Assembly: GCF_054482525.1 (NCBI RefSeq)
Contig: NZ_JBTHVG010000007.1
Direction: 5' to 3' (one strand)
Length of the DNA stretch: 64,000 nt
DNA from: a plasmid
In this document: in pieces, positions 55,568 to 57,569 of the stretch
Position numbering within the stretch: position 1 is the stretch's first letter
Layout of the letters: every line of letters begins with the position of its first letter
Notes under the pieces: generated by a model
The model's database searches: none
Told to the model about the DNA's origin: nothing
Seen by the model: the letters and a program-made list of their open reading frames with translations, nothing else
Translations under genes and position numbers: made by a program

Positions 55568-55946
55568 GGCTATGATGTTGTACTCACAGCCGGCATAACG
55601 TCCTGTGCAATTTCGCTGTCGAAACCGCCTGTGCTGACCGCCCAGTGCACTCACCTGAAGCACATCGCAGCATGCCACCAGGATGCCAGATCGTCTTCTG
55701 AAATGGGTGGATACATTGGCAACGTTAACCGCAACAATTTTTCAGAGAGAATTTTGGGGGGTGAGGGCCAGTGATGTAAAAAATACGCCAAGAGGTTAAT
55801 TCATTGTTTATACTGATATGTCAGGTAATGCGTTTGCAGTCATTACAGTCGTCATGGAGACTGTAATGACTGCAAACGCATACCATGGAGCGAAATTCTA
55901 TCCTAAGCGTCACATTAGTTGATAAACCTGTAACGTTAATGAATTC

Positions 55947-56327
55947 TCATGCGAAAAGTATGGTTATGATAAAAAAGCCTAAAGCTGTCATGATGAGGGA
56001 GCCAATGACGTGAACAAGTACAGACGTCAAAGCCCATATATAATTTCCCGCCTGGAGTAATGCGAATACTTCAACAGAAAATGTAGAGAAAGTACTCAGA
56101 CCTCCACAAAGTCCCGTTGTTATCATTAATTTCCAAAAAGGATCAAGGTGTGGTTGTCGTAAAAAGTACGCCAACGCAGTACCAATAATTAACCCGGCAA
56201 GGAGGTTCACCACCAGTGTACCTGGAGGTAGATTTGGAAAAAGACTGTTAAAGCGTGTGGACAGTAACCAGCGCAGAGTACATCCAACAGAACCGCCGAT
56301 AATGACGGCAAAAAGTGATTTAATCAT
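55947..56327 (-). CDS. crcB: CrcB/Fluc fluoride ion channel
   Basis: 126 aa, four TM segments, conserved LSTFSTFSVE motif. Confidence 0.85.
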   Translation of the reverse strand: MIKSLFAVIIGGSVGCTLRWLLSTRFNSLFPNLPPGTLVVNLLAGLIIGTALAYFLRQPHLDPFWKLMITTGLCGGLSTFSTFSVEVFALLQAGNYIWALTSVLVHVIGSLIMTALGFFIITILFA

Positions 56328-56667
56328 GTACCCCTCATAAAATAATTTTTTATCGTAACAATATCAGAATATGTTCTCATTTGACTGATATTGTTAATTT
56401 ATATCCTTTGACTACATGCAAGATAAGGGAAGGTTCTATTTATTGACATTAATACCCTCGACAATTGCTGAGCAGAAGCCCCCACGACAAGTGACAGAAT
56501 GACAACATCTACAGTGGGGAGCGTTTTATCGATGAACAAGCAACCAAGAAGTAACACGGCATAGGTGACGACAATGCCAGTAAGCATAGAAATAACAAAA
56601 ACGTGAGCTTTCATCATTCCTCCAGAATAACCCCGACGTGTAAGCCTGGGGGATTGGCACAATAATG

Positions 56668-57102
56668 TCATTTAAAGGCAGACTTTCCAGCAAATTGCGC
56701 CGATGAACCCAGTTCATCCTCAATTCTCATAAGCTGGTTATATTTTTCAATACGCTCACCCCGGCATGGAGCTCCCGTTTTGAGATGACCTGCGCGCATT
56801 GCAACTGTCATATCGGCGATAAAGCTGTCCACTGTCTCACCACTGCGGTGTGAGATAAAGGTGCCCCAGTTGTTGTCATGGCAAAGTTGTACCGCATCAA
56901 AGGTTTCACTCAGGGAACCAATCTGGTTGAGTTTAATCAATGCTGAATTGGCAAGGTTTTCGTCAATGCCGCGCTGAATATACTTTACGTTGGTCACAAA
57001 CAGATCGTCGCCAACCAATTCTATCTGCTCTCCCAATGCACCATGCAGGATTTTCCATCCAGCCCAGTCATCTTCAGCTACCGTTAAGGGCAGGAAGATC
57101 AA
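56668..57102 (-). pseudogene. eno: enolase 3' fragment (about the C-terminal 144 codons)
   Basis: [10 protein letters not shown]...[13 protein letters not shown]...[49 protein letters not shown] matches the enolase C-terminal domain; no room for the N-terminal 290 aa before sitD. Confidence 0.8.
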
Positions 57103-57569
57103 CTAGGTGCTCTGGGGCTGGTGACCAATGCGGTTGTGCTGTGAAACACACTTTACATGCAGGAGGCGTTGTCACATCTTCGCAAATCGGGAGAAACTCC
57201 TGAGGAGTAGCATCCGGCAAGATTATCGCTGCTGATACATAGCCATATAAATATGCTGGGGCATTATACGTCTTCGTTACCGGAAGATATTCTTAAGGGT
57301 GAGTTAAGATCATTAAACTTCAATACAAACAATTAATTAAACTCTTAGCGTGGTTTTTTACATCACTGGCCCTCGCCCCCCAATTTTCTCTATGTTTTGC
57401 CACTACTTCCCTCATTTTACTGCGCTGTTTGCTACCCCTGAGAATCGACATTACTTGCTATCCAGTCCGCAGCAACTCTCTGGCAACAAAACTTATCAGA
57501 ATCATAAGTCTGTGCATTATTCGTTCAAGCGCATCGCCAATAAGCGGATGTTGCTGGCCGAGTGTTCTG

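Follow-up and report, generated by a model that had tools for sequence, protein, structure and literature searches.

The crcB and truncated enolase genes of ColV-type plasmids very probably lie in the remnant of a Tn3-family transposon with fluoride-resistance cargo

A 64,000-nucleotide stretch of plasmid DNA (contig NZ_JBTHVG010000007.1 of assembly GCF_054482525.1; hereafter, the window) was analyzed for the origin of a short segment holding crcB, a small open reading frame (ORF), and the 3' end of an enolase gene (eno), which lies between shiF of the aerobactin locus and sitD of the sitABCD operon. This segment, at positions 55756-57381 (1,626 bp), is very probably the decayed remnant of one Tn3-family replicative transposon with fluoride-resistance cargo. 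The imperfect inverted repeats of about 70 bp that bracket it had been noticed in a first-pass annotation made from the letters alone, and they are best read as the termini of that transposon. The same annotation proposed that a small cassette had delivered a fluoride-related module into this region. A mobile element does appear to have delivered the module between the aerobactin and sit loci, but what arrived would have been a transposon some 7.6 kb in length that held tnpA, tnpR, and a riboswitch operon of five genes, and that shrank to 1.6 kb only through two later internal deletions.

The left arm of the repeat was aligned locally with the reverse complement of the right arm. Positions 55743-55816 pair with 57320-57394, with identity in 64 of the 75 alignment columns (85%) and a single 1-nt gap; the similarity is therefore well above 70% and much longer than 30 bp. 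The alignment score was 93, whereas 500 shuffles averaged 15 and reached at most 27, and an independent repeat search recovered the outer 41 nt with 90% complementarity. The 21-bp identical core described earlier, GAGGGCCAGTGATGTAAAAAA, is present at 55763-55783 and 57354-57374, and no further copy of the inverted repeat was found within the 64-kb window. The arms exist as first described, except that their outermost ~13 nt (cagagagaatttt / catagagaaaatt) fall outside the element and consist of the duplicated target AATTTT and target DNA that is palindromic by chance. The apparent extension of the arms beyond GGGG (agagagaatttt / agagaaaatt) is thus not element sequence; the flanking DNA past AATTTT reads CAGAGAG ... 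CTCTATG. Inside the 38-bp repeats, about 35 bp of subterminal sequence is alike at both ends, as it is in the relatives described below, and this similarity is therefore a trait of the transposon lineage. The arms look about 70 bp long because the 38-bp terminal repeat is joined to these ~35 bp on its inner side and to palindromic target DNA on its outer side.

Both arms read GGGG...ACGCYAAG from the outside inward over 37 or 38 bp, which is the signature of the Tn3 family. The first-pass annotation could not match the repeats to a known insertion sequence (IS) terminus; they are recognized here as the Tn3-family 38-bp form GGGG...ACGCTAAG. The cargo-side terminal inverted repeat (IR-L; 55756-55792, plus strand, 37 bp, GGGGGGTGAGGGCCAGTGATGTAAAAAATACGCCAAG) aligns with the 38-bp repeats of intact relatives, and the tnpA-side repeat (IR-R; 57344-57381, minus strand, 38 bp, reverse complement GGGGGGCGAGGGCCAGTGATGTAAAAAACCACGCTAAG) has the Tn3-family form. 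The repeats of the intact relatives (GGGGTTCGAGGTCCAATGATGTAAAAAACCACGCTAAG) align base for base with the window arms. IR-R reads GGGGGGCGAGG...CCACGCTAAG, and IR-L ends in CGCCAAG, as do the cargo-side repeats of three comparison loci (L014, L015, and L021). IR-L has one base fewer than IR-R and the repeats of all relatives, and the loss lies in the inner part of the repeat. Repeat positions 5-6 are GG in both window ends (55760-55761 and 57376-57377) and TT in every relative examined; therefore, these are matched ends of one element. IR-R also agrees with IR-L, and not with other tnpA-side repeats, at positions 12 and 16. These shared variants suggest co-evolution of, or gene conversion between, the two ends. 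Another IR-L variant, GGGGGGGG, was seen at locus L008.

The direct repeats that the first-pass annotation advised looking for are present. AATTTT abuts IR-L at 55750-55755, and the identical 6 bp abut IR-R at 57382-57387. Published Tn3-family duplications are 5 bp, sometimes 6 bp, and occur in AT-rich DNA (PMC4133298, PMC13367494), and the duplication found here falls within this range.

A relic of the transposase gene was also identified. The repeats had been said to enclose only crcB, the small ORF, and the enolase fragment, which overlooked a tnpA 3' stub at ~57079-57336 on the plus strand. The stub holds the last ~77-85 codons, with two in-frame stops and the natural stop codon at 57334-57336 (frame-2 translation ...LGLVTNAVVL*NTLYMQEALSHLRKSGETPEE*HPARLSLLIHSHINMLGHYTSSLPEDILKGELRSLNFNTNN*), and it is annotated as a pseudogene in RefSeq. 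It matches the Tn3 transposase model NF033527 (E = 9.5e-19), covering profile positions 897-952 of 954 at a score well under the 500-bit cut-off for the whole protein, and is 90.9% identical at the protein level to residues 914-990 of an intact 1002-aa TnpA. The intact relative TnpA scores 1124.6 bits on the same model. At the DNA level, the region ~57077-57385, which comprises the stub and IR-R, shares 91-92% identity with intact "Tn3 family transposase" genes, at their 3' ends, on Enterobacter, Citrobacter, Providencia, and other Enterobacterales plasmids. Neither tnpR nor res is present in the window.

The history of the segment can be followed through a longer form on plasmid pB188_F (L001), in which identical repeats, flanks, and AATTTT enclose a 5,867-bp element. 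From IR-L, the long form carries crcB, the small ORF, full-length eno (414 aa; TIGR01060, 608.5 bits), the universal stress protein gene usp, the manganese-dependent pyrophosphatase gene ppaC (NF003877, 293.8 bits; cut-off 283), a fluoride riboswitch (RF01734, 43.8 bits; gathering threshold 34), a C-terminal tnpR stub (L001 10179-10502), and part of tnpA. This tnpA part is 1.75 kb long, is 92.3% identical to the intact gene from nt 1288 on, and retains roughly residues 414-990, broken across reading frames. Window positions 54301-57078 correspond to L001 4902-7679, and 57077-58500 correspond to L001 11919-13342; the 4,239 bp at L001 7680-11918 are missing from the window, and the rest is collinear. 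The deletion junction lies at 57077/57078 and has a 2-bp GC microhomology. This 4,239-bp deletion explains the truncated eno, the TTG "start" of its listed ORF within antisense tnpA sequence, and the absence of the riboswitch. Consistently, an Rfam scan of window positions 54000-59000 gave no match to RF01734 even at E ≤ 1, and returned only spurious miRNA matches on a palindrome. In PLSDB, the short form was found in 737 plasmids and the long form in 16. In the first deletion, tnpR would have lost its 5' part and tnpA its first 1,287 nt, and res would have been removed, leaving the 5.87-kb form; the second, which extends from within eno almost to the tnpA end, would have produced the 1.6-kb form of the window.

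Some plasmids of this type have changed further. In several ColV-type plasmids, such as pPK8568-156kb (L003), only the right part of the cassette remains beside sitD, starting from window position 56947, 57077, or later. Evidently, additional deletions or rearrangements occurred on the shiF side of these plasmids. Other copies of the cassette are interrupted by IS3, IS1, IS66, or ISKpn26.

The first-pass annotation also suggested searching for the same repeat-bounded unit elsewhere. The ColV copies all lie at one site, but diverged relatives were found in other contexts. A pattern search with the 21-bp core returned 14 metagenome loci. Nine have GGGGGG-type ends, and all nine are flanked by shiF or sitD. 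Three further loci, from two contigs, represent a diverged version with GGGGTTT-type ends, with 85.5% identity across the entire cargo and 91% across tnpA. Two of these, L016 and L015, belong to one complete copy on metagenome contig Ga0183101_1000531 (L016). This copy is 7,854 bp long, is flanked by a perfect 5-bp duplication (ATTGA), and has the order inverted repeat, tnpA, tnpR, riboswitch (45.3 bits), ppaC, usp, eno, small ORF, crcB, inverted repeat. Its TnpR is intact, and its TnpA shares 95-99% identity with the reference protein from plasmids but is split by a 257-bp insert. A second metagenome locus, L014, has the same cargo and left end with a riboswitch of 45.3 bits and different adjacent DNA. 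Plasmid pEB3_IMP1 of Enterobacter hormaechei carries a third lineage, 92.9% identical to L016, in yet another context, with tnpR intact and tnpA cut by IS26. Overall, these diverged relatives are 85-93% identical. Between the ColV and L016 lineages, protein identity of the cargo is 96% for CrcB, 92% for Eno, 89% for Usp, and 88% for PpaC. Since the family occurs in three contexts, one of them with an intact duplication, it must have moved as a unit.

Two observations were made on the L016 contig itself. A repBA regulatory pseudoknot (RF01089, 53 bits) is located at L016 733-850; therefore, the complete copy is also plasmid-borne. The insert that splits its tnpA (L016 5480-5736) carries inverted ends of the GGGG type (GGGGTCAGTTTGGA...TCCAAACTGACCCC), is flanked by the 5-bp duplication TAATA, and looks like a Tn3-derived inverted-repeat miniature element (TIME). 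At 257 bp, it is close in size to the 256-bp MITESen1 (PMC13367494). It has matches in 2,316 PLSDB plasmids, 937 of them covering at least 80% of the insert, and most of the matches listed lack an annotated feature.

Based on these comparisons, the ancestor would have been a mobile transposon of the Tn3 family, about 7.6 kb in length, whose cargo was a fluoride operon under riboswitch control. Its proposed order is IR-L and a stem-loop, followed on the minus strand by crcB, the small ORF, eno, usp, ppaC, and the riboswitch, and then by tnpR, res, tnpA, and IR-R. Each terminus would consist of the 38-bp repeat, serving as the site of transposase binding and cleavage, plus the ~35 bp of conserved subterminal sequence. 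We propose a single insertion into the AT-rich spacer between shiF and sitD of a ColV-type plasmid, duplicating AATTTT; that it was one event is suggested by the matching 6-bp repeat and by the architecture shared with L016.

The only intact cargo gene in the window is the channel gene crcB (55947-56327, minus strand, 126 aa), whose native promoter and riboswitch have been lost. The protein scores 175.8 bits on NF010792 (cut-off 125) and 108.4 bits on TIGR00494 (cut-off 80.45). It is identical to PDB chain 7KKR_A at 125 of 126 residues, the sole difference being residue 25, which is R in the window and K in the chain; near-identical scores were obtained with other Fluc-Ec2 entries such as 5A43, and 6B24 is a further entry for this channel. 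Fluc-Ec2 is a highly fluoride-selective dimeric channel whose source was given as an "E. coli virulence plasmid" (PMC3755343). The window CrcB can thus be equated, by its sequence, with Fluc-Ec2, a channel that has been crystallized and characterized electrophysiologically. In Enterobacter cloacae FRM, a ppaC-uspA-eno-gpmA-crcB riboswitch operon gives high fluoride resistance experimentally (PMC5533749).

The crcB gene lies downstream of sitABCD and has the same direction. Between sitD and crcB, consensus scans revealed nothing that resembles a terminator, and promoter-like matches were at or below chance. Induction in urine has been reported for pS88 by qRT-PCR. Fold values ex vivo and in vivo were 83.9 and 776 for sitA, 26.3 and 139.8 for sitD, 8.0 and 18.7 for eno', 4.1 and 9.7 for the small orf, and 4.2 and 6.1 for crcB (PMC3438092). 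The induction drops stepwise from sitA toward crcB, and the simplest reading is that crcB would be transcribed mainly by read-through from sitABCD. A more speculative idea, which we consider rather unlikely, is that the remnant has been put to use: as a 3' passenger of the metal-starvation-induced sitABCD operon, crcB would raise fluoride export in iron- and manganese-poor host fluids such as urine, and selection for this linkage would have kept crcB alone intact as the other transposon parts decayed. Fluoride in urine is high enough that chromosomal crcB is needed for growth there (PMC10936160).

Several points weigh against this account of the segment. The duplication is 6 bp long, while all three relatives that could be scored have 5 bp (TTCAC in L005, TATAA in pEC22, and ATTGA in L016). 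Neither PLSDB nor the 14 metagenome loci yielded an autonomous copy free of any interruption; L016 has its insert, pEB3_IMP1 its IS26, and the ColV lineage its deletion. An empty site was also sought, with the two flanks joined by one AATTTT (TTCAGAGAGAATTTTCTCTATGTTTT), using megablast for plasmids and E. coli genomes and a 26-nt junction pattern elsewhere. No match came from the 72,556 plasmids, the 5,426 E. coli genomes, the 100,044 species-representative genomes, or the metagenome collection, and the plasmid comparison proposed in the first-pass annotation accordingly gave no site lacking the segment. Finally, read-through from sitABCD depends on one published qRT-PCR table of fold changes, which holds neither absolute levels nor transcript continuity.

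The lack of an empty site would also be expected if the two repeats came from different transposon copies or ends, with recombination between them joining the sit and aerobactin modules and leaving the segment as a recombinant junction. Among the matches listed, the 188-bp stretches next to the repeats are not found beside chromosomal sit or shiF, which also favors a junction. Recombined copies would leave flanks that do not match, and here all six bases are identical, with an estimated chance of ~2e-4 to 1e-3. The lineage-specific GG at positions 5-6 is common to both ends, and the long form has the one-element architecture of L016, which carries a perfect duplication of its own. Given these findings, we regard an origin from two copies as very improbable. 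A further explanation, that the repeat is a chance or regulatory palindrome of the shiF or sit control regions, has in its favor only the position between two operons. The alignment score is far outside the range of the shuffles, the repeats match transposon ends on unrelated plasmids, and they lie downstream, not upstream, of both neighboring genes; they belong to neither regulatory region, and the chance of this explanation being right is negligible.

Another question is whether the 1.6-kb unit still works as a non-autonomous element, such as a mobile insertion cassette or a large TIME-like element, moved in trans by related Tn3-family transposases of Enterobacterales plasmids. In structure, the unit would qualify: both terminal repeats are kept with their outer GGGG domains intact, and transposases with ~91% identity to the stub occur commonly in co-resident plasmids. 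Moreover, transposition has been demonstrated for non-autonomous members of the Tn3 family that are 262-3,892 bp long (PMC4133298). In contrast, every copy examined (737 plasmids, 798 genomes, and 9 metagenome contigs) occupies one site and has identical flanks, and a search of the 100,044 species-representative genomes for the 21-bp core gave no match. In addition, the inner base missing from IR-L is present in IR-R and all relatives, and there is no res site for cointegrate resolution. Continued mobility is, therefore, highly unlikely. The remnant of a single transposon remains the preferred reading, and we infer that this fossil is immobile and passed on vertically within the plasmid lineage, as it has no transposase, resolvase, or res and so cannot move alone.

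The first-pass annotation had described the segment as "MITE-like or a degenerate transposon end". The second description fits. Membership of the miniature inverted-repeat transposable element (MITE) or TIME class was rejected, since these elements are ~30-300 bp, non-coding, and multicopy, whereas the segment is 1,626 bp, holds crcB and gene fragments, and occurs once per replicon, always at the same site.

The cassette is common in E. coli. At least 80% of it is covered in 798 of 5,426 complete genomes (~15%), at 1,054 places on plasmids and 16 on chromosomes, with a median of one place per genome. The shiF and sitD flanks were present in all plasmid and genome matches inspected.

At the insertion site, exactly 188 bp separate each repeat from the neighboring stop codon (55568-55755 to shiF; 57382-57569 to sitD); with AATTTT counted once, the two stretches make up a 370-bp spacer. 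Among the matches listed, alignments with chromosomal sit loci begin only within ~30-60 bp of the sitD stop, and those with other shiF contexts end at the shiF stop codon. The reconstructed target (55743-55755 plus 57382-57394) reads CAGAGAG-AATTTT-CTCTATG followed by TTTT; on the shiF strand this makes an imperfect hairpin and a T-run, ~180 nt past the shiF stop. The transposon may have inserted into the loop of a weak shiF terminator. A different arrangement was seen at L019 (OHUV01003031.1, ~2232-2546), where the shiF-side flank is joined to a hybrid repeat, IR-L-like on its outer and IR-R-like on its inner part, and then to the stub of tnpA and to eno'. It reflects either an inverted cassette, produced by recombination in the 21-bp core, or a chimera of short-read assembly.

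The remaining parts of the element are as follows. Next to IR-L is the subterminal left-end backbone (55793-55827, plus strand), whose sequence has been conserved at the cargo-side ends of L014, L015, and L021 and of the transposon in pEC22. Just inside it, 3' of crcB, is a perfect 23-bp palindrome (55828-55881; arms 55828-55850 and 55859-55881) with a predicted fold of -46 kcal/mol on the crcB strand. No T-run follows, so it is not a canonical terminator. L014, L015, L021, and pEC22 have only an imperfect inverted repeat at this position, and the ColV lineage lacks 21 bp beside the palindrome that the relatives carry. It seems that the palindrome was made perfect in the ColV lineage, possibly through template switching.

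The small ORF (56399-56671, minus strand) encodes 90 aa as listed, is hydrophobic, and is kept in the relatives, with 80-86% protein identity to the same position in L016 and L014; the three lineages are ~15% diverged in DNA. Its N-terminal 18 codons are not open in L016 and L014, and L014 is frameshifted near the end. The conserved core probably begins at an internal MMKAHV near 56617 (core ~56399-56617). No NCBIfam match was found for this ORF, which could encode a membrane protein of the fluoride operon or be a mere spacer.

The eno 3' fragment (56668-57078, minus strand) holds the C-terminal ~136 codons. It matches only positions 287-422 of the 425 in TIGR01060 and, as far as the deletion junction, runs collinear with the complete 414-aa eno in pB188_F, and the listed ORF continues beyond this to a TTG at 57102. 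An enolase fragment limited to these profile positions should miss several catalytic residues and be inactive.

These results change how two "core" genes of ColV plasmids can be read. Papers on these plasmids list crcB and a truncated enolase gene among the core genes (PMC4723317, PMC3438092). The plasmid crcB has been interpreted as a supercoiling/plasmid-compaction or camphor gene (PMC4723317), and the "putative enolase", reported as urine-induced, was suggested to help the shikimate pathway feed siderophore synthesis (PMC3438092). Our analysis suggests that the "putative enolase" is a dead C-terminal deletion fragment whose induction is most likely run-on transcription from sitABCD, and that crcB is the surviving gene of a fluoride-resistance transposon, which would explain the presence of these puzzling genes. 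More generally, the results show that fluoride-resistance operons under riboswitch control move among Enterobacterales plasmids as Tn3-family cargo. Since the cassette occurs in ~15% of complete E. coli genomes, its two deletion states could be used as markers of plasmid lineage. For specialists in mobile elements, a decayed Tn3-family transposon is routine, and the biology is ordinary. RefSeq annotates crcB, a "phosphopyruvate hydratase ... missing N-terminus", and the tnpA pseudogene, and not the repeats, bounds, or history. In the searchable literature, we found no relevant paper on a Tn3-family fluoride transposon or on the repeats or bounds of this element.

Tn3 and Tn1000/gamma-delta have divergent tnpR and tnpA genes with res between them. 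The closest sequenced relatives of the window element, none of them named, are carried by pNDM15-1091 (L004), a Pantoea agglomerans plasmid (L005), and pEC22 (L006). The element shares with its Tn3-family relatives the form of the 38-bp repeats, a tnpA 3' end that reaches the repeat, and a short AT-rich target duplication, and the relatives have divergent tnpR and tnpA with cargo between tnpR and the far repeat, as in this lineage. It differs in having a fluoride-riboswitch operon as cargo, in its 6-bp duplication and GG instead of TT at positions 5-6, and, in the window, in the lack of transposition and resolution modules. TIMEs likewise have Tn3-type terminal repeats without a transposase gene and 5-6-bp duplications in AT-rich DNA. 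However, TIMEs are ~250 bp, non-coding, and multicopy, while the window unit is 1.6 kb, holds a gene and fragments, is confined to one site, and demonstrably arose in place through internal deletion of an autonomous transposon.

The cargo most resembles the operon of E. cloacae FRM. The gene sets and their order are nearly alike (riboswitch, ppaC, usp, eno, and then crcB), and both combine extra copies of fluoride-inhibited enzymes with an exporter. The transposon version has no gpmA, has a small hydrophobic ORF between eno and crcB, and resides in a Tn3-family transposon on plasmids and not in a chromosomal island; the window retains only crcB and the dead eno fragment. Compared to Fluc-Ec2, there is no real difference at the protein level. 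What is added is a genomic origin for this model fluoride channel, as transposon cargo that has been severed from its riboswitch.

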